Origin: Candidatus Bathyarchaeia archaeon
GTDB lineage: Archaea > Thermoproteota > Bathyarchaeia > 40CM-2-53-6
DNA length: 64,000 nucleotides
Assembly: GCA_050013255.1 (NCBI GenBank)
Contig: JBEKFP010000001.1
Span: 640,001-704,000, forward strand
Direction of reading: 5' to 3'
A program made the translations under genes and the position numbers. Shown in pieces: positions 28,604-54,245 of this stretch; position 1 is the first letter of the stretch, and each line of letters begins with the position of its first letter. The notes beneath the pieces are model-generated. The model did not search any database and was not told the DNA's origin. It was given only the letters and a program-made list of their open reading frames with translations.

Positions 28604-28959
28604 AGTTCTGTTAACTTGCCGGCCCATTGGTTTCACCAATCTCTCATCCCTAAAGGTTAGAGGTGCCGGTAAGGAGCCTTGTCATCAGTTGATGAAGACT
28701 GCTCATTAGGTGATATGTGGGTTCTAAACCCGAAAGCTGAGCGGTCCGATGTTGGGTAAAGGTTGCTCCGACCAAGCGTAAAACCCTGACTTGCGAAGGG
28801 TCTAGCTGGCTTCGTGAATGCGAAGCGAGAGCCGTGAGGTTCGCGGCCGTCGCGTCTGCAACTGAAGCGATGGTACAGGAACCGCTGACTGAGCGCAATC
28901 CTGAAAGTCGATGCAGATGAGTTGACTCGGAAGCCAAGAGCCGAAGAGTTAACAGAACC
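28604..28959. mobile_element. Non-autonomous IS6-like mini-element 1 (356 bp, structured non-coding interior)
   Basis: Terminal IRs (A)GTTCTGTTAACT / AGTTAACAGAACC; flanking direct repeat AAAGCAAT at 28596-28603 and 28960-28967. Confidence 0.8.
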
Positions 28960-36434: not shown

Positions 36435-36564
36435 CCCATTTCAAGCATATTCCTCCAAGTTGAATGTGCCAATTTACTTCGTTTTCGCGTAAGCACACGA
36501 TTAAGCTCCTTCGGCCTCTTGGTTTGTGTCGGTCTAATGGCGTGCACTTAACGATGGATTGAGC

Positions 36565-37381: not shown

Positions 37382-37536
37382 CTTACGATCGGCAATACTA
37401 GAACGGACCCACCAAATATCTTCGCCGTTACTGACCGGGTGATAGGACTCTTGCCGTTGAAGACCGTCTATGTGACGAATCTCCGCACCTTTCTTCGCAT
37501 CCCTCACGATTAACTCCCGTTAAAGACGAAGTTGTT

Positions 37537-38598
37537 CTAGCCACCTATCTTGCTGCCACATTCAGTGCAGAAGTTGGCCACAGTTGGCAAGGGGGACCCG
37601 CAATTCATGCAATAATTCCTTTCCTTCGCCCTCATGATGCCTGTCTGCTGCTGTTTCTTTCTCTTGTTACGAGCGTTGAAGGCGAACACGGCCACGAGGA
37701 TGAGCGCAGCTGCTCCTAAACCCCCCAATACGGTCTGGGAGATTGCCTTGATTAGGGTCGAGGTCAATGAGGCACCAGAATTGTTGAGAGGTAGAGTTGA
37801 AAGCAGCTCGCCGTCCTTCCTCAGCTGCTGACCCGTGCCGGCGATTATGTCAGTAGGCCCCAAGACTGTAACACCGTAAGGAATCGCTACGTCGCATTCG
37901 GGTTTCTCTACACCGCAACCTGAAATTGCGTAAAGAAATTTCACCAGGTGCCACTCGTTCCGCGCATAATATGAGGGAGTTCTAAATTCAACAGGCCCCA
38001 AGCTTCCACTCGCCGTAGCTGAGTTACCTCCTTCCTCCGCTACAACGGAAACGGGGTCCCTTGAAACCGTCCACGGGTAGTTCAGTTTCGAAACGGTTTG
38101 CCCATCAAGTAGAAAGGCCCACCCATTTGTAACATTGGCCATGATCTGGTAGAGGTGCCACGCCCCTTCCTGGCCGACTGAATTTCTTGGGCCGATAGCA
38201 AAGTAGTAGTTAGGGACCTTCGCATCCGGCCAGTACTCCCAAAACCATCGTGCATCACCATTCTCAACCAAGTCGAAAGATCCCGAGCAGGTCGAATTTC
38301 CTCCAGAACTATACCCGTACATGCAATAGTTTCCGCTAGTTGCTAGGTCGTAACCGAACTGTATGAAAGATCCGTTTTGTAGATTGCTTCCGACCCAGAA
38401 CGCAGCGCCAAAATCTTGATCACCAAGGGTGGAGACATGGGTGCGAATTTCAACGCCAACCCCCATGTTCCCCCGAGAAGCACTATCAGCAAAAGCCCCA
38501 ACCTGAATACTATAGGCCGCCTGCGCCGTTGCCTGTGGCAGAAAAAGCAGGAACATTAACAACGCAATAACCGGGAGAATTCTACGAACGCGCAACAT
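37537..38598 (-). CDS. Secreted beta-rich protein with TM and C-terminal zinc ribbon
   Basis: Signal peptide, TM, CMNCG...FCTECG. Confidence 0.75.
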   Translation of the reverse strand: MLRVRRILPVIALLMFLLFLPQATAQAAYSIQVGAFADSASRGNMGVGVEIRTHVSTLGDQDFGAAFWVGSNLQNGSFIQFGYDLATSGNYCMYGYSSGGNSTCSGSFDLVENGDARWFWEYWPDAKVPNYYFAIGPRNSVGQEGAWHLYQIMANVTNGWAFLLDGQTVSKLNYPWTVSRDPVSVVAEEGGNSATASGSLGPVEFRTPSYYARNEWHLVKFLYAISGCGVEKPECDVAIPYGVTVLGPTDIIAGTGQQLRKDGELLSTLPLNNSGASLTSTLIKAISQTVLGGLGAAALILVAVFAFNARNKRKKQQQTGIMRAKERNYCMNCGSPLPTVANFCTECGSKIGG

Positions 38599-38718
38599 AC
38601 AAGCTCACTCTCAGCTTCCCCCTAATCATCTAATCGGCAGGGAGCTAGTTTTTGCTCGAAACTGTTCGAGGGCTTAGGAGTTGACGTGAAACTTAGGCTT
38701 GCCTTCCAAAACTAATAT

Positions 38719-39264
38719 ATGCCAAAGAAACCGGGCGGCACTAAGATCCTTTTGCCAGATGAGATAGTAGAAATTGACGGTCCGAATCATCTCTTCAAGG
38801 ACAATCTCCTAGACGGCCTCGTTGGGAGGTGGAATGTAACCGGAACAATCGCGGGCCAATCAATCACACATTTCTGCGAAGCTGACTGGGTCCTCAATCA
38901 TCAATTCTTGAGAGTCCACTTCATCGATGTGGAATCCAGAAGCCTTCAAGATCAACGAGACAACAAGGAGCATCAGCACGCTCCGTACGAAGCAATCGTC
39001 TTTGTTGGCTATGATAACATGAGTGAGCGTTACGTAGTTCACTGGCTCGATATCTTTGGCGGCCGCTTTTCCGAAACTTTGGGGTTTGGCGAAAGAGAAA
39101 ATAACGAATCGATCAAGTTTGCGTTCGAGTATCCATCTGGCCCTCTTCATAACACCTTTAGCAGGAATGCAGACAAAGACGCATGGTCAGTCGTCATCGA
39201 GCAGAAAGATGACAAGGGCAAATGGACAGTCTTTGCGAACGAGGTTCTTGAAAGGACTAAGTAG
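38719..39264 (+). CDS. DUF1579-like beta-barrel protein
   Basis: LVGRW.V.G...WVL.HQFL...GYD....RYV.HW.D.FG. Confidence 0.7.
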   Translation: MPKKPGGTKILLPDEIVEIDGPNHLFKDNLLDGLVGRWNVTGTIAGQSITHFCEADWVLNHQFLRVHFIDVESRSLQDQRDNKEHQHAPYEAIVFVGYDNMSERYVVHWLDIFGGRFSETLGFGERENNESIKFAFEYPSGPLHNTFSRNADKDAWSVVIEQKDDKGKWTVFANEVLERTK

Positions 39265-39282
39265 CAAACCGCGCAGCGGTGT

Positions 39283-39377
39283 AGTGGTGGTGGGTCTAAT
39301 GGTGCGCACACACACTTTTACTAACGACGGACGACGGTTCAAATTACGATGCCCGCACCATTAGAGGCAAACACGCG
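39283..39377. repeat. Two copies of the 13-8-13 palindromic site (39283-39316 reverse; 39344-39377 forward, degenerate)
   Basis: GTGGGT-CTAATGGT-GCGCACACAC and CGC-ACCATTAG-AGGCAAACAC. Confidence 0.75.
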
Positions 39378-39721
39378 AAACTGGCCGGTTGCGTATGAGG
39401 AACCAGCCAAAGACATGATTATCAGATGTAGCAATCGGCCGAAAGCAATCCATCCGACTTTTAACCAATAACACCCGAGCAATTATGAAGAGCAAATTGA
39501 GGGTCGTCGAAGTTCGGAAGGATAAGACGATAGACCTCCCCGACAATGCTGTCCCAGTAAAACTGGAACAAGTAACCGAACCCACGGGACTCGTAAATCC
39601 CGCACCGTCTTCAGAAAGATTCGTCCTCTACTATCTTGAGAAAGAACGCTAAAGCCATCTCTGCATCAAGATTCCTTCTGACCGAAGACATCATACAAAG
39701 CAATGCGAAGGAGGTGAAATC

Positions 39722-40273
39722 ATGGCTAGAGTAGCACGCGAAATGGTAGTGAAGGCTGGCGTAAACGTCGACCAACTCCTCGACCTACTGGTCAGAAACG
39801 CGGCCGCTGAACTAACAACATTCTACTACTACACAATCCTCCGATGCAACCTAATCGGCCTGGAAGGCGAAGGAATCAAGCAACTCGCTGAGACAGCTCG
39901 AATTGAGGATCGCAATCACTTCGAAGCCCTCGTCCCACGCATATACGAACTCGGCGGCAAACTCCCAGACGACATGAAAACATTCCATGACTTGACCGCA
40001 TGCCCACCCGCTAGACTGCCCAAAGATCCAACGGATATCAAAGCAATGTTGACGGTGCTGGTAAATGCGGAAAGATGCGCAGTAGCCGGATACTCACACG
40101 TTTGCAACATTACCGCAGGCAAAGACCATCGCACATACGACCTATCCCTAGCAATTCTGAACGAGGAAGTGGAGCATGAATCATGGTTCAGCGAATTCCT
40201 AGGAGAAGGCCCATCCGGACACTTCATGCGGCAAGGCGACACGTCACCATTCGTATCGAAATTCCTGAAGTAG
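39722..40273 (+). CDS. DPS-like (DPSL) ferritin-family protein
   Basis: AELTTFYYY, EDRNHFE, AERCA, EEVEHE; Cys pair; SD GGAGGTGA. Confidence 0.9.
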   Translation: MARVAREMVVKAGVNVDQLLDLLVRNAAAELTTFYYYTILRCNLIGLEGEGIKQLAETARIEDRNHFEALVPRIYELGGKLPDDMKTFHDLTACPPARLPKDPTDIKAMLTVLVNAERCAVAGYSHVCNITAGKDHRTYDLSLAILNEEVEHESWFSEFLGEGPSGHFMRQGDTSPFVSKFLK

Positions 40274-40334
40274 AAGTCGAATCAACATATTCGTCCAGCT
40301 AAACCTCTTCTTTTCTCGACGGTTTTTCTTGTTT

Positions 40335-40368
40335 TGTGTGTGTGCGCACAACTATACTCACACACATG
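40335..40368 (+). repeat. 13-8-13 palindromic site
   Basis: TGTGTGTGTGCGC-ACAACTAT-ACTCACACACATG. Confidence 0.75.
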
Positions 40369-40425
40369 CAATAGAGATGATTTTTTCCTAGATTGGGCTT
40401 TCCTGTAAATTGAGTAACCCGCCGG

Positions 40426-40449
40426 GTGTGATCTTAGTGGTGCGCACCC
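40426..40449 (-). repeat. 13-8-13 palindromic site (degenerate)
   Basis: Reverse complement GGGTGCGC-ACCACTAAG-ATCACAC. Confidence 0.6.
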
Positions 40450-40522
40450 AGAGCTGAGTCCTGGCCGGTTAACCGTACCAAGGTCTTTCTAAGAGGGTTC
40501 TCCTATTGCGTCCAAGAATCTG

Positions 40523-41110
40523 ATGACCCCTGAGAAATCAGCCTCAGTAATCTCGCTCGTCTTCAACCCGGCCGTAACAGCGGCGTTCACATTCCTGATT
40601 CTGTTGTACCCTATGCGAAGCATGCAAACATTTCTCTTGCTGATGGCAACCTGTATCACATTTGGAACCATGGTCCCGCTTGTGATGATGTATCAACTTA
40701 CAAAACGCGGCCTCATTTCGGATTTCAATGTTTCAGAGAGGCAAGAACGGACAAAACCGTTCGTTGGAGCAGCAGTCAGCTATCTCGCCGGCAGTGGCGC
40801 TTTATTGTTGTTGAAAGCCCCAACCATAATCATCACATTGATGCTCTGCTACGCTTGCAACACGGTCATAATGCTGCTCATAACGCTTCGATGGAAGATC
40901 AGTATTCATGCGTCAGGCATCGCAGGTCCTACGACCGCTCTAGTCTACAGTATAGGTACGTGGGCTGCAGTTTTCTTTATCCTGCTCATCCCTGTTGGGT
41001 GGGCAAGAGTGCAACTAAAGGTGCACACTCCATGGCAGATATTCGCGGGAGCATTAGTGACCGCAATCGCGACATGGCTACAGCTGAAAATCTACTTCTC
41101 AATTCTCTGA
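40523..41110 (+). CDS. PAP2-like membrane protein
   Basis: R.ER..P, KISIH, WARV.LK.HT.WQ. Confidence 0.75.
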   Translation: MTPEKSASVISLVFNPAVTAAFTFLILLYPMRSMQTFLLLMATCITFGTMVPLVMMYQLTKRGLISDFNVSERQERTKPFVGAAVSYLAGSGALLLLKAPTIIITLMLCYACNTVIMLLITLRWKISIHASGIAGPTTALVYSIGTWAAVFFILLIPVGWARVQLKVHTPWQIFAGALVTAIATWLQLKIYFSIL

Positions 41111-41136
41111 GTGGTTAACACTAAGAGGTATTCGCT

Positions 41137-41703
41137 TTGACCGAAAACACGCGCAAGGCCGTGCATCTCTTAGCTTTACTCGTCCCACCCGTCTCTGAAC
41201 TAACCTCGAAACCTTTAGTTCTGGCTGCGCTTTCCATAATCACAATTGCATATGTTCTTGGGGAAGTACTGCGCCTCAAAGGCCACCACTTGCCGATTAT
41301 CACGCCATTCACACTGAAGATGAGCCGGCCCGAAGAGAGAAGAAGCTTCATCATACGACCGGCATATCTCGCAATTGGTATCATTCTGGCGTTGGTCTTC
41401 TATCCCAGCACGATCGCTTATGCGTCAATATGCATCGGGGCGATCGGTGATTCTGCCGCTGCCATTGTGGGAGAGAGATTCGGTCACAGGCGAATTGTTA
41501 GGCGGAAGACGGTAGAGGGCTTTGCTGCAGGCTTGACCGCTGCTTTCCTTCTGGCTTCCTTTTTCGTCTCTCCTTTCATAGCTCTACTAGGTGCAGTCGG
41601 AGCTATGATTATGGAACTTCTCGATGTGCCAGATGACAACCTCACAATGCCAATCGTCGCGGGGGCATTGATGACTCTCGCGACTCTAACAGTCCGCTTA
41701 TAG
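41137..41703 (+). CDS. Dolichol/phytol kinase-family membrane kinase
   Basis: RKAVH, GDSAAAIVG..FG....KTVEG, DDNLT.P. Confidence 0.85.
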   Translation: MTENTRKAVHLLALLVPPVSELTSKPLVLAALSIITIAYVLGEVLRLKGHHLPIITPFTLKMSRPEERRSFIIRPAYLAIGIILALVFYPSTIAYASICIGAIGDSAAAIVGERFGHRRIVRRKTVEGFAAGLTAAFLLASFFVSPFIALLGAVGAMIMELLDVPDDNLTMPIVAGALMTLATLTVRL

Positions 41704-41739
41704 CGGGCCCATTTGTGCTGTGTTATGTCGTGATGGGAC

Positions 41740-41773
41740 ATGGTGTGTGCGCACCATTAGACCCACACAGATG
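41740..41773 (+). repeat. 13-8-13 palindromic site
   Basis: ATGGTGTGTGCGC-ACCATTAG-ACCCACACAGATG. Confidence 0.8.
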
Positions 41774-41795
41774 AAAACTGCACGATGCAAAAGTG

Positions 41796-42240
41796 GGTTC
41801 TGTTAAGAACTAGCGTGTTGGTTGACCGTTAAGCATCGGGGTGTTGAGGGTATCATGTCTCAAGTTCCGTTGTATAAGGCTCTGTCAAAAATCGAAGGGT
41901 TCGGAGCGTTTGCCTCACGGCGAATAGAGAAAGAATCTCAAATTGCGGTTTGGGATGGACCTTATGCCCACGAACTGCCGAATGATGCTTCTGCGAAATA
42001 CTACTTGTATGTTAGACCGCATGTATATCTCGTAGGCTTCGGTGGGGATTACCCCGAATCTTTCATCAATCATTCCTGCAATCCGAATAGCAAAATCGTT
42101 TGGAACGGTGATATAGCGATTCTTGTTGCAATACGTGATATTGAACAGAACGAAGAGGTTACATTCGATTATGGGTCTGCAAGTTCATTATCGCCCGAGG
42201 GTTAGCAAGGATACCGAACACCCATCAACTTAACAGACCC
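41796..42240. mobile_element. Non-autonomous IS6-like cassette 2 (445 bp) carrying a SET gene
   Basis: IRs GGTTCTGTTAAG / CTTAACAGACCC; exact 8-bp duplication CAAAAGTG at 41788-41795 and 42241-42248. Confidence 0.85.
41822..42205 (+). CDS. SET-domain protein-lysine methyltransferase (likely ATG 41855)
   Basis: SKIEGFGAFA, FINHSCNPN, EEVTFDYG; no post-SET cysteines. Confidence 0.85.
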   Translation: MTVKHRGVEGIMSQVPLYKALSKIEGFGAFASRRIEKESQIAVWDGPYAHELPNDASAKYYLYVRPHVYLVGFGGDYPESFINHSCNPNSKIVWNGDIAILVAIRDIEQNEEVTFDYGSASSLSPEG

Positions 42241-42261
42241 CAAAAGTGTTAGTCATATATA

Positions 42262-42585
42262 GTGTTGAGTTTGATTAGGGCGGGATGCATTATGCCTGTT
42301 GTTATGATAATGAATTGGAAAGGCCTCACCCGCGAACAGTATGAGGCCATGAGGAAACCCATCAACTGGGAAGGAAACGTACCCAAAGGGCTGCGATTCC
42401 ACGTAGCGGCGTTCGACGCGAACGGGGCACACGTCACCGATATCTGGGACACCGCCGATAACTTCAACGACTTCGTCAAGAGCAGGCTTATGCCAGGCGT
42501 GAAACAGCTCGGGTTTAAAGGCGAACCTCAGGTAGAAATCTACCCAACCCACGCCATCTTCACACCCGCCTACAACCCAAAGTAA
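42262..42585 (+). CDS. Small alpha/beta-barrel-like hypothetical protein (likely start MPVVM)
   Basis: G.T.EQYE...P.GL.FHVA......V.D.W pattern. Confidence 0.7.
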   Translation: MLSLIRAGCIMPVVMIMNWKGLTREQYEAMRKPINWEGNVPKGLRFHVAAFDANGAHVTDIWDTADNFNDFVKSRLMPGVKQLGFKGEPQVEIYPTHAIFTPAYNPK

Positions 42586-42791
42586 GAACCCGAAGCTTCA
42601 GTGGGCGCCCCTAGCGTCAAGCTAAGTGTTCCCTCCCGGCGTACGGCTTCTAGCATCGTGTGATCACAGATCTCGCGGCCTGCGCTCCGGAAGGTCGTCC
42701 GTTCAATGTCCAACGCGAATTACGTTAGAAACGTAGCGGCTCGTTAAGAGTATGTAGTTCTAGTGGTGTTCATAATTTGAACTGCCATTTT

Positions 42792-42825
42792 CATGTGTGT
42801 GCGCACCATTAGAGGCACACCACAC
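42792..42825 (+). repeat. 13-8-13 palindromic site
   Basis: CATGTGTGTGCGC-ACCATTAG-AGGCACACCACAC. Confidence 0.8.
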
Positions 42826-42884
42826 GAAAAGACAGAAATGCGATCCATCGTATGGAGTACTGGGACGTCACCGGTTACAGATGA

Positions 42885-43304
42885 ATGATAACAGTCTCAG
42901 AATCCCTTGGCATCAGGGCCACAGCTGACAAAGTATGGGCCATCGTAAGAGATTTTGAGCATGTGAACCGTTGGGTCATTGATCTGGCGTCATCGGTACC
43001 TGAAGGTGAAGGCGTTGGAATGCTAAGGCATCTCATTCAAAGGGACGGGGCTCGAGTTCTTGAGCGTCTCGACTTGCTGGACGAATCCACCAAGACAATT
43101 GAATATCATATCGTGCAGTCGGACCTACCGTTCACTACCTATCGCTCAAGCATCAAAGTCAGGAGCACGGGTCCGGATTCTTGCGAGGTACTCTGGACAA
43201 GTGCCTTCGAACCGAAAGGAATAGACATCGACCAGATTTTGCAAACCCTCAAGACAAATTACCTGAGATATCTTGAAAGCCTCAGAAAGCTAACTTTAGC
43301 TTAG
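42885..43304 (+). CDS. SRPBCC/polyketide cyclase-family protein
   Basis: A.ADKVW..V.DF....W...GVG..R...ERL. Confidence 0.85.
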   Translation: MITVSESLGIRATADKVWAIVRDFEHVNRWVIDLASSVPEGEGVGMLRHLIQRDGARVLERLDLLDESTKTIEYHIVQSDLPFTTYRSSIKVRSTGPDSCEVLWTSAFEPKGIDIDQILQTLKTNYLRYLESLRKLTLA

Positions 43305-43650
43305 ATAGAAGCGTGAGTTGCCTGATAGCCACAAAAATCGTTTGGAAGGAAAGAGGAACCATCTTAGTGTGGTTAGGCATTCTTCGACTTGTGTGAATTC
43401 GACAACCGAAGCGGCAATTGGAGCTATAGGGGAAAACAAAGTTGATGGCACTATCATCTAATACAGATGGAGCATAAGAAAGAGCTGCTCCGATTCCAAT
43501 TAATGGAAGCTCACAGCCATGGAACCAAGAGGACTTTGAAATCGAGGAGCTCATTCACGCGGGTAAGATCATTGTGATGGATGGAAAGAAGTGAAGGATC
43601 AGATCTACCGGCTGGAAAAGAATATCATGATTTAGTCGGCCGTCGCAACT

Positions 43651-43690
43651 TGAACCGTCGTCCGTCGTCGTTAGTAAAAGTGTATGTGGA
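43651..43690 (+). repeat. Inverted copy of 39307-39342 with a degenerate site
   Basis: TTGAACCGTCGTCCGTCGTCGTTAGTAAAAGTGTATGTG matches the reverse complement of 39307-39342 with a 3-bp indel. Confidence 0.75.
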
Positions 43691-43710
43691 CGCATGATTC
43701 TAGCGGCTCG

Positions 43711-44175
43711 TCACGCCTGACGCATTGTTTGTAATTGTGCCGCTCGTTGTCTGAGAGCTACACTCATCTTGTCAAATTCATCTTTTGTGTTCTTTATTGT
43801 CTTTGACAGAAATGGTAGGAAAAGGCCGCTGAATTTCTCGCTTTGTACAAAGAGCACTCTCTCGCCACCCTGATTGTCTGAAATGGGTTTTATTTCAAAG
43901 ACATGTTCGCCATCGAACAGTCCGGGAATCCACAATTGCCCCTTCCAACGAAGTTCATGGCCCGGTTCCGCTACAAGTAATCTCACCGTGAATGAGGCTC
44001 CCTTACCGCTTTCAGTTCCCATGTAAACCTTCAACTTCGACCCTAAGCGGCGATCTTTGACTGCCTCCCGTATTTCACCTGGGACAAAGCCTGGGGAGCC
44101 GATTAGAAGCTGCCACACCTTATCAGGCGAAGAACCAATCTCTATTTCAGATCGGATCTCTTTCATTTTTCTCAC
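43711..44175 (-). CDS. SRPBCC-family protein
   Basis: EIEI..SPDKVW, ELRWKG.L.IPGLFDGEH.F, Q.E.FSG. Confidence 0.85.
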   Translation of the reverse strand: MRKMKEIRSEIEIGSSPDKVWQLLIGSPGFVPGEIREAVKDRRLGSKLKVYMGTESGKGASFTVRLLVAEPGHELRWKGQLWIPGLFDGEHVFEIKPISDNQGGERVLFVQSEKFSGLFLPFLSKTIKNTKDEFDKMSVALRQRAAQLQTMRQA

Positions 44176-44223
44176 TCATCCCTTCCGAATACGAATGCTA
44201 CTCATGAGATCGCACTAAGTAAT

Positions 44224-53050: not shown

Positions 53051-53518
53051 CTAACACATCCAGCGGGGTACATGTTTCCTATACTGCAAGTATGCCTCGC
53101 CGAATTTCCGCTCGAGATATAATTCTTCGGGTTTCACTGTCCCACGTTCCACAACAAAGAGCAACAGTGGGAAGAGCAGAATCAACCAAAGAACATCCAG
53201 GAAAACTGCAATTCCGAGAAAGAAAACAAACATCGAGAGGTAAAGTGGGTTTCGGGTATAACGAAAGACACCCTTCTCGACCAAGGCCGTTGTTGGTTCC
53301 CGTGGATCAGGACTAGTATGCGCCCGACGCATTTCAATTATCCCAGAACCGCCGATCAGAAACCCCGGGACGAGTATTATGACCCCTGCTATCTGAACTG
53401 AACGGCCAGGGAAGAAGGCTAGTGGAAGAACCCAGTTCAATAAGAACCCTAAGATGAGGATCCCAAAGAAAATCACCGGCGCAGGAACAACCCTAGGGCG
53501 GTCAACTTCGGCGTTCAA
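53051..53518 (-). CDS. Isoprenylcysteine carboxylmethyltransferase-family membrane protein
   Basis: LV..G.FRYTRNPLY, EE.YL...FG.AY..Y...VPRW. Confidence 0.88.
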   Translation of the reverse strand: MNAEVDRPRVVPAPVIFFGILILGFLLNWVLPLAFFPGRSVQIAGVIILVPGFLIGGSGIIEMRRAHTSPDPREPTTALVEKGVFRYTRNPLYLSMFVFFLGIAVFLDVLWLILLFPLLLFVVERGTVKPEELYLERKFGEAYLQYRKHVPRWMC

Positions 53519-53581
53519 GATTCTAACCTTCGTTCATTTCGTAAATCCACTGAATCAAGTGTTGTTTGGCGGTTAAGGTTT

Positions 53582-53606
53582 CATGTGTGTGAGTCTAATG
53601 GTGCGA
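53582..53606 (-). repeat. 13-8-13 site (one arm degenerate) overlapping the DUF99 stop codon
   Basis: CATGTGTGTGAGT-CTAATGGT-GCGA. Confidence 0.7.
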
Positions 53607-54245
53607 GCGTCGGAATTTGGACTTGTTTCCGCGTGTTTGCGTGGTCAAGACGCTGAGGCCTCTAGCGAGGATGCCGGCGACTCGGATCGGTTCGGGTAAT
53701 CTGGAAATCATCGCTGCAGATGCAATGGCTTTCTTGGCGAATGAAAGGGGGGCACCATTCACTTCGAAGTATAGTTTAGGTTCTTGCGGAAGTGGTTTGA
53801 AGGCGTAGAGGCGTCCAGCATTCCGAACTATGCGCCAGCGCTCTTTCCAATCGCTAAAATGTTTTCGCAAAGCCCGCAGGACGGCTGGGTTGTCCGGCTT
53901 CTCTCTACTGATAGCGATAACCGGCTTCCGCGTGGATCGGGTGAGTTGATGGATGTCGACGAGGTTAAATCCTCCGAAAGAAATGCCGGAAAGCATCACA
54001 ACGTCAAACCGCAAGTTCTTGAGAAGGGAGTTTAGGACGCGGTTGGCGTCCCTCCCATCAACTTCTATGCGTCCGAGTCTGACATCGGAAATAGTTGAGC
54101 CCTGGAAGAGTACTGCGACTAGGAGGGCGTATTGCTTCACTCTCCTAATTGCTGGAATTGCCCCGTCGTCGATTCCAACAATTCTTAAGCTAGGATTGGT
54201 GTTTCTGGAGGGACTTTGGGACATATCCGAAGAGTCTGCCTGCAA
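53595..54245 (-). CDS. DUF99 (endonuclease V-like) protein
   Basis: GIDD, VDG.DA, G..FGGFN.VD, PEP.RVA. Confidence 0.88.
   Translation of the reverse strand: MQADSSDMSQSPSRNTNPSLRIVGIDDGAIPAIRRVKQYALLVAVLFQGSTISDVRLGRIEVDGRDANRVLNSLLKNLRFDVVMLSGISFGGFNLVDIHQLTRSTRKPVIAISREKPDNPAVLRALRKHFSDWKERWRIVRNAGRLYAFKPLPQEPKLYFEVNGAPLSFAKKAIASAAMISRLPEPIRVAGILARGLSVLTTQTRGNKSKFRRSHH

Follow-up and report, generated by a model that had tools for sequence, protein, structure and literature searches.

Between positions 39283 and 43704 of a 64,000-nucleotide stretch of a Candidatus Bathyarchaeia genome (GenBank GCA_050013255.1, contig JBEKFP010000001.1), small modules of accessory genes are parted by copies of a short repeat, which raises the question of what these sites are and which enzyme made them. 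The whole stretch, hereafter the window, corresponds to C1:640001-704000 of a 2.46-Mb assembly in three contigs (C1 to C3). An earlier note, made from the letters alone, had read the repeat as a 34-bp site at which a tyrosine recombinase shuffles gene cassettes; its idea of a cassette array was right in substance, but the recombinase mechanism was wrong. We propose instead that the sites are probably the junctions of an array of mini-casposons, i.e., Cas1-less derivatives of casposons, inserted at a tRNA-like, leader-bearing target by a Cas1-type integrase (casposase).

Anatomy of the junction sites

All eight copies reported earlier (S1 to S8) were found at their places when the region was read directly. 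The 34-mer itself stood up as a consensus but not as a real copy: because it has no match in the sequence within three mismatches (≤3), it describes the family rather than any member of it. The 17-mer GTGTGCGCACCATTAGA has three exact occurrences and five at ≤3 mismatches, against 0.11 expected, and the same repeat families were recovered by a repeat finder. The proposed partition into 13-8-13, with arms complementary at 11 of 13 positions around an 8-bp core, did not survive inspection. The actual parse is 10+14+10 (CATGTGTGTG, CGCACCATTAGACT and CACACACATG); the palindrome comprises the ~10-nt tips only, and the two mismatches of the supposed arms are inner bases that form part of an asymmetric 14-mer. 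The three parts are the right-end tip of one unit (...GTGTGTG), a 14-mer of the form CGCACCA+N7, and the left-end tip of another (CACACAC...), and every unit in the window starts with CACAC (or CAAAC) and ends with GTGTG.

The sites occur in two forms. Form B consists of (GT)n, CGCACCA N7 and (CA)n, in that order, while in form A, composed of GGTTCAAATT N8, CGCACCA N7 and (CA)n, a tRNA-like leader replaces one of the tips. Form A measures 25 nt from its GG to the A of CCA, and the real tRNA genes of this genome, in which CCA is encoded, show precisely that spacing; one form-A match is a real tRNA-Gln gene (C1:1132371-1132498) that ends in CGCACCA and is unoccupied. The 14-mer target most likely imitates the last bases of a tRNA gene, CGCA standing for the acceptor stem's end together with the discriminator base; CCA follows CGCA in the target because the genome encodes CCA. 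Scans of the region for tRNAs and Rfam families gave no matches, the imitation being limited to the last 25 nt of a tRNA. Most tRNA genes of this genome have introns (ARAGORN reported 30 tRNA genes with its intron option switched on and 7 with it off), and most of the 19 Rfam tRNA matches are directly followed by an encoded CCA. Much the same target has been described for the family-2 casposons of M. mazei, which generate 14-bp duplications opening with a conserved CGCA that overlaps the final 4 bp of tRNA-Leu, and whose specific targeting requires ~30 bp of upstream tRNA sequence (PMC4779613, PMC6977970).

The tyrosine-recombinase reading, in which crossover in an 8-bp core of Cre/loxP-, Xer/pdif- or integron-like sites moves the cassettes, drew on palindromic-looking sites with an asymmetric centre, on the cassette-like modules between them and on inverted pairs, and the genome does encode three tyrosine recombinases. 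By coordinates, inverted pairs bracket both the Dps-like (DPSL) gene (S1-/S3+) and the PAP2 gene pair (S4-/S5+), but the DPSL gene also lies between a direct pair (S2+/S3+). The resemblance to Cre/loxP, Flp/FRT and Xer/pdif systems, i.e., a short site with inverted outer parts, an asymmetric centre and bracketed modules, does not extend inward: the inner bases of each supposed arm are not complementary, the palindrome is confined to the 10-nt tips, and the centre is 14 bp instead of 6-8 bp. Many sites lack one arm, 22 two-sided sites having a tRNA-like leader and no left arm; cassettes found elsewhere keep their tips and lose the centre; and the sites have neither the R''/L''-L'/R' anatomy of attC nor the 11-6-11 anatomy of dif. 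None of the recombinase genes lies in a site cluster, and two of them adjoin tRNA genes, as in classical integrated elements. Given that neither site anatomy nor enzyme class supports it, we consider this reading very improbable. Its particular versions were set aside one by one: Cre/loxP- or Flp/FRT-type sites on account of a complementary part of only ~10 nt, a 14-nt centre and recombinase genes located elsewhere; Xer/pdif modules on their different site anatomy and on array orientations that are mostly direct, not alternating; and an integron attC array on 14-mers that are not cassette-specific, on the lack of an integrase gene at the arrays and on the lack of an orientation bias. Relics of att sites left by tRNA-integrating elements with tyrosine integrases were likewise dropped, the integrases lying elsewhere and the junctions bearing transposon tips.

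Casposases and the elements that encode them

Only two Cas1 matches exist in the genome (C1:1333420-1334640 and C3:231179-232381), and both are intact, full-length genes (407 and 404 aa). [quoted passage not shown] Relatives of the Cas1 gene are found in Candidatus Bathyarchaeia metagenome-assembled genomes (MAGs) from peat.

Both Cas1 genes lie within site clusters, and both of the elements that carry them have the junction type seen in the window. The C1 element (C1:1330285-1346550, minus strand) reads leader, CGCACCATTAGACC, CACACACACACACTTTGAAACGGTTGG..., ~16 kb of interior, ...CCAACCGTTTCAAAGTGTGTGTGTGTGTG, CGCACCATTAGACC, next tip, and combines ~40-bp inverted ends and an exact 14-bp duplication with the same (CA)n tips as the window units. 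The C3 element (C3:228092-239043) has GC-rich tips, an exact CGCACCAGCATACC on both sides and a leader on one side, and so does a third element with Cas1, which was found in a related Bathyarchaeia MAG (L036 7442-12587), have an exact CGCACCAGCATACC on both flanks. The cargo of the C1 element includes AIPR, a DNA methylase and a DndB-like protein; across the Cas1 regions examined (C1:1329000-1347500 and C3:220500-236500) the cargo is of defense type and also includes a GHKL ATPase-like protein, and neither Cas2 nor effector genes were found there, nor, among the ORFs examined, a family-B polymerase. A TIR-domain protein and an HNH nuclease adjoin the C3 Cas1.

Compared with family-2 casposons, whose duplications are 14-15 bp long, the system shows exact 14-bp repeats (around the three Cas1 elements and a 3.4-kb block in the window), a tRNA 3'-end target with CGCA and a putative upstream leader, and terminal inverted repeats, with CACAC.../...GTGTG tips in all units. 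The window units encode neither Cas1 nor the family-B DNA polymerase of self-synthesizing elements, and since none encodes Cas1 they can only be non-autonomous derivatives. [quoted passage not shown] The likeness to M. mazei family 2 (MetMaz-C1, MetMaz1FA1A3-C2; PDB 6OPM) covers the homologous casposase, the 14-bp CGCA duplication, the tRNA 3'-end target, tandem elements that share a duplication, solo end repeats, and the tandem landing of an artificial mini-casposon. The differences are that (i) the window units lack Cas1, polymerase and HNH nuclease, and carry one or two ordinary genes in 0.07-1.3 kb; (ii) there are dozens of them per genome, in arrays, and in a Bathyarchaeia host; (iii) the tips consist of (CA)n and not of the M. 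mazei sequence, the target includes CCA, and the long end repeat has its own copy of the leader; and (iv) the Cas1 element examined here has no PolB, and R191/R192 are not conserved.

Precedents for several of these features have been published. Tandem casposons with one shared duplication, as well as solo end repeats, occur naturally (PMC4779613, PMC6977970), and in A. boonei the five terminal nucleotides of the end alone are critical (PMC6614799). An artificial mini-casposon was mobilized in vivo and landed in the left duplication, yielding a tandem, and inverted, transferred target copies were also seen (PMC10359463). The casposons described so far are few, large and autonomous, with array-like forms only as tandem pairs and solo ends, and mini-casposons only as laboratory constructs (PMC4779613, PMC10359463); in the literature we found no natural non-autonomous, miniature or MITE-like casposon, and no casposon in Bathyarchaeota.

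Short inverted tips and an intergenic location (84 of 96 sites outside open reading frames [ORFs]) would equally suit a MITE-like family, or one resembling repetitive extragenic palindromes (REPs), that was moved by some other, unrecognized transposase, with the link to Cas1 a coincidence born of a shared preference for tRNA-like targets. Site-rich genomes without Cas1 would fit such a family, as would a different small element with 8-bp duplications that has been active in the same array. Yet the C1 Cas1 element shares the identical (CA)n tips and 14-mer; a 14-bp duplication starting with CGCA at a tRNA 3' end is the published signature of a casposase (PMC4779613, PMC6977970); and no Y1 (IS200/RAYT) transposase is encoded (0 matches to PF01797 in a genome scored 100% complete). 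We therefore regard another transposase as distinctly unlikely. REP/REPIN repeats with a RAYT were rejected as a candidate on the same absence of a Y1 transposase, and on sites that are clustered, not dispersed.

Clustering of sites and reshuffling of cassettes

A genome-wide motif scan, which the earlier note had recommended, found a clustered site family. An nhmmer profile of the core gave 86 matches at E <10, and the family has about 100 copies in this genome. A rule-based scan, with the reversed genome sequence as control, sought CGCA that has either a (GT)n tip or a GGTTCAAAT leader to its 5' side and, 14 nt downstream, a (CA)n tip. It returned 22 two-sided sites with leader and tip (control, 0) and 16 with two tips (control, 0), in total 38 against none, together with 36 sites with a 5'-side tip only (control, 9) and 25 with a leader only (control, 10). 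Ninety of 116 sites fall into 19 clusters that make up 4.6% of the genome, and the sites are intergenic in the proportion given above though ~86% of the genome lies in ORFs. Orientation relative to the upstream or downstream gene is ~50:50 genome-wide, without bias, and orientations within arrays are mostly direct. Among nearby same-strand pairs of sites, 10.8% (S2/S6 being one) agree exactly in the variable half of the 14-mer (permutation p ~0.0015); the share is 3.1% among distant pairs and 3.0% among nearby pairs on opposite strands. CGCACCA is preserved while the other half of the 14-mer drifts, with the caveat that the scan selects for CGCA.

These distributions also bear on a role at the RNA level. 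Most window copies follow stop codons of plus-strand genes and form A mimics a tRNA 3' end, as might be expected of a GTGTGTG...CACACAC hairpin acting at mRNA 3' ends as a terminator, a stabilizer or a tRNA-like processing signal; the even orientation relative to genes, the lack of any Rfam family or tRNA match, and the location of the sites in islands and not generally behind genes make this the least probable of the explanations considered, although the sites may have a secondary RNA role. The alternatives offered by the earlier note, a REP-like 3' repeat or an operator, are disfavored because the sites are strongly clustered and show no orientation bias toward flanking genes, and a terminator was discarded on the same lack of bias.

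Of 18 species sampled from the genus, 17 carry the 20-mer core (0 matches in a backwards control); the 12 genomes sampled from the order's other genera all lack it. Among 23 genomes of the genus, 14 encode casposase homologs.

Comparison with sister species bore out the claim that the sites are recombination junctions parting accessory-gene modules, given that modules recur singly, in other contexts and combinations, with breakpoints at the sites. Homology between species does stop there, as the cassette-shuffling idea predicted, but it stops at the tips, and the centre does not travel: tips accompany cassettes between species and the 14-mer does not. The unit with the Dps-like ferritin gene (U1) is found in G014, G004, G033 and G018 at 83-89% identity, in contexts other than this one, and its homology stops at 39372 and 40337-40344, which are the tips. 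The 107-aa gene of unit U3 forms in G007 a unit by itself between two tip-14-mer-tip junctions, adjoining a cassette that in the present genome lies in the C2:746-kb array, and the 107-aa cassette is 95% identical in G004 and G011, again in other contexts. Because the 14-mers beside it differ among the window, G007 and G004, the 14-mers belong to the target and not to the cassette. In G002, G032 and G008 the PAP2 gene pair forms part of the ordinary chromosome; in G015 and here, sites flank it. Each cassette is single-copy in this genome.

At the scale of the whole island the picture is different. G014, the closest relative, whose flanks are 90-92% identical, has 227 bp in place of 37534-44217, and G018 has an unrelated 1.1 kb; in the G014 comparison the boundaries of this island lie away from the repeat sites, with no target motif there. 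The island (6.7 kb) holds a zinc-ribbon protein, a DUF1579 protein, the array and a second SRPBCC gene. A G004/G000 comparison at C1:262 kb was rearranged, not clean.

The stretch was found in 20 sequencing runs from 19 peat and wetland studies, none of them an RNA run. Within metagenome contigs, the cassette parts 41272-41805 and 42340-42606 reach 4-10x the depth of the flanking genome at ~96% identity; other, more abundant community members therefore carry the same cassettes. The sole bridging 'empty' joint (37492 to 44218) comes from a relative that is ~91% identical, and short-sided joints at sites stem from repeats or from other organisms.

Several findings weigh against a casposase origin of the window units. 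In the genome, no Cas1 lies in the window, the candidate partner being ~650 kb away, and mobilization in trans is something that we infer; the arginines R191 and R192, which contact CGCA in 6OPM, are replaced by H and Q in this casposase; and the ten large ORFs of the C1 Cas1 element contain no polymerase domain. Within the array, 14-mers around single units are mostly non-identical apart from S2/S6, S1 and S4 are inverted, and the end repeats of U1, U2 and U4 are weak past the first 5-10 nt. Among relatives, the copy of U1 in G014 lies in an unrelated context with its tips present and no 14-mer or recognizable duplication, searches for a clean empty site of a single cassette came up with none, the site-rich genomes G018, G016 and G013 have no detectable casposase, and the presence of a casposase correlates only weakly with site number across the genus. 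In contigs of four peat and wetland runs the island is stably present and the contigs break at sites; neither excision nor circles, the latter a check suggested by the earlier note, were seen within the strain, though contigs cannot reveal rare forms.

On another account the sites would be old, now immobile casposon scars, and the module pattern would come mainly from homologous recombination and deletion between the many 34-85-bp repeats instead of from ongoing transposition. The cassettes differ between species to roughly the extent that core DNA does (84-95% versus 90-92%), all are single-copy here, the metagenome contigs show no polymorphism, and flanking 14-mers mostly differ. Against purely old scars stand the two intact, full-length casposase genes, the exact 14-bp repeats around the Cas1 elements and the 3.4-kb window block, and the retention of CGCACCA while the other half of the 14-mer drifts (again in a scan that selects CGCA). 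We judge this account unlikely; it is one of timing, not of origin, and is compatible with the mini-casposon explanation.

The array in the window and its possible formation

An inverted pair of 45-50 nt, 39307-39355 and 43637-43688, recovered by the repeat finder with 87-88% identity over 30-32 nt, brackets the whole array. Its left member is TIR1, the left copy of the long end repeat (39307-39353, plus strand; CACACACAC-TTTTACTAACGACGGACGAC-GGTTCAAATT-ACGATGCC), whose inner part (39336-39353) is the tRNA T-loop-like leader of S2. S1 (39293-39306, minus strand) consists of the 14-mer CGCACCATTAGACC, the tip GTGTGTGTG (39307-39315, reverse complement) and a degenerate tip, CACCACCAC (39284-39292). 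The TTGAACYG segment noticed earlier upstream of three copies is indeed common to S1, S6 and S7, and is an inverted copy of the GGTTCAAATT motif within unit ends. S2 (39354-39367, plus strand) carries the leader-proximal 14-mer CGCACCATTAGAGG, which S6 (42802-42815, plus strand) repeats exactly and in the same direction, S2 being the left and S6 the right copy; CGCACCATTAGAGG has no other copy in the genome. Since the two 14-mers are identical, the 3.4-kb block U1-U3 (39368-42801) has exact 14-bp direct-repeat flanks beside a leader.

Within this block, U1 (39368-40344, plus strand) has the tips CAAACACGCG... and ...TTTTGTGTGTGTG and the Dps-like ferritin gene 39722-40273 (Pfam Ferritin, E 2e-20). 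It is followed by S3 (40345-40358, plus strand), a diverged 14-mer, CGCACAACTATACT, between two tips; by U2a (40359-40430), a 72-bp stub with tips CACACACATG...GGGTGTG that is probably a remnant or a solo end; and by S4 (40431-40444), an inverted 14-mer that reads CGCACCACTAAGAT on the minus strand. U2 (40445-41749, plus strand) encodes a PAP2-like protein (40523-41110) and a cytidylyltransferase-like membrane protein (41137-41703), both assigned on weak Pfam hits, and ends in the right tip ...ATGGTGTGTG, next to S5 (41750-41763, plus strand) with the consensus 14-mer CGCACCATTAGACC. U3 (41764-42801, plus strand) contains the 107-aa gene (42262-42585) between the end repeats CACACAGATGAAAACTGCA... 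and ...TGCCATTTTCATGTGTGTG, which match as inverted ends at ~17/20 nt. Beyond S6, U4 (42816-43690, plus strand) carries an SRPBCC/polyketide-cyclase-like gene (42885-43304), its right end (43637-43690) being the inverted copy of TIR1, and the array closes with S7 (43691-43704, plus strand), whose degenerate 14-mer CGCATGATTCTAGC matches the consensus, by eye, at 9 of 14 positions with CGCA kept.

We propose that each 34-bp site would be the right tip of one unit, a copy of the 14-bp target and the left tip of the next unit. A casposase would join a unit's 3' ends to the target at positions 14 bp apart on its two strands, and gap repair would then duplicate the 14-mer; specific targeting would also use the T-loop-like leader GGTTCAAATT, 8 bp upstream. 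The units would have been moved in trans by Cas1-bearing elements, the most plausible partner being C1:1330285-1346550, with its identical (CA)n tips. Units would accumulate because every insertion regenerates the target, and the inward-facing leader copy of TIR1 may create new landing sites. The last recognizable event would be the insertion of the 3.4-kb composite 39368-42801 into the leader-proximal site, duplicating CGCACCATTAGAGG. The array is not a simple series of insertions at one target, because the 14-mers flanking its units differ and S1 and S4 are inverted. A further-reaching idea, which we hold only tentatively, is that of a living, casposase-built gene-cassette system, in which Cas1-less units that need little beyond a 5-nt tip are captured serially at leader-bearing, tRNA-like sites and the leader copies in end repeats let arrays seed arrays.

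Casposons are the proposed ancestors of the CRISPR adaptation module. The window most likely holds a repeat-insert-repeat array of natural origin, built with chemistry that CRISPR went on to adopt: it shares with CRISPR arrays (Cas1-Cas2) the homologous integrase chemistry, a leader-adjacent target, a duplication per insertion and the repeat-insert-repeat layout, and differs in having gene-sized inserts with their own ends instead of 30-40-bp spacers, and repeats of 14 bp plus element tips. With integron arrays (IntI/attC, also reported in Archaea) it has in common small one- or two-gene modules between recombination sites by a fixed landing site, and cassettes reshuffled among genomes; unlike integrons, it would rely on a Cas1-type transposase, its junctions are tip, duplicated target and tip with no cassette-borne attC hairpin, and it has no common orientation or promoter logic. 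The proposal amounts to dozens of natural Cas1-less derivatives with ordinary genes at leader-bearing sites, across a peat and wetland Bathyarchaeia genus. If it is correct, a Cas1 integrase is able to run an integron-like gene-cassette economy, i.e., a natural counterpart of integrons that uses CRISPR-adaptation chemistry, and a class of accessory-gene islands in uncultured archaea is explained. Such arrays would then offer natural material on the origin of repeat-insert-repeat arrays in a transposon, and could plausibly illustrate, in living form, the transition from casposon to CRISPR array, with tip, 14-mer and leader giving concrete testable predictions.

S8 (53592-53605, within region 53581-53630, minus strand) is a separate, one-ended site made of a leader-like GTCCAAATT-N8, the 14-mer CGCACCATTAGACT and the tip CACACACATGA; it is followed by a 155-aa membrane-protein gene (53051-53518, minus strand), and no right end was found for it. 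Elsewhere in the genome, solo long-end (TIR1)+14-mer units stand head to tail with a spacing of 59-65 bp (C1:630732/630797, C3:221476/221535 and C3:222308/222370), each of which restores the leader before the next 14-mer and so forms a miniature repeat array without cargo. A degenerate site-like relic (36522-36547, minus strand; GTG, CACGCCATTAGACC, GACACAAAC) lies in the window outside the island, in DNA conserved with G014.

Nested in U3 is a MITE-like element of 445 bp (41796-42240, plus strand) with a SET-domain gene (41822-42205) and the ends GGTTCTGTTAAG and CTTAACAGACCC, flanked by an 8-bp duplication, CAAAAGTG, at 41788-41795 and 42241-42248. The same element in G014 (L020) is flanked by CGCACATC, and it is a second, unrelated type of gene-carrying small transposon. 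A repeat of ~100-200 nt at ~28740-28950 of the window has at least seven genome copies (e.g., C1:262403-262531, C2:477687, C3:219888 and C2:83407), matches no Rfam family and is conserved in G004.

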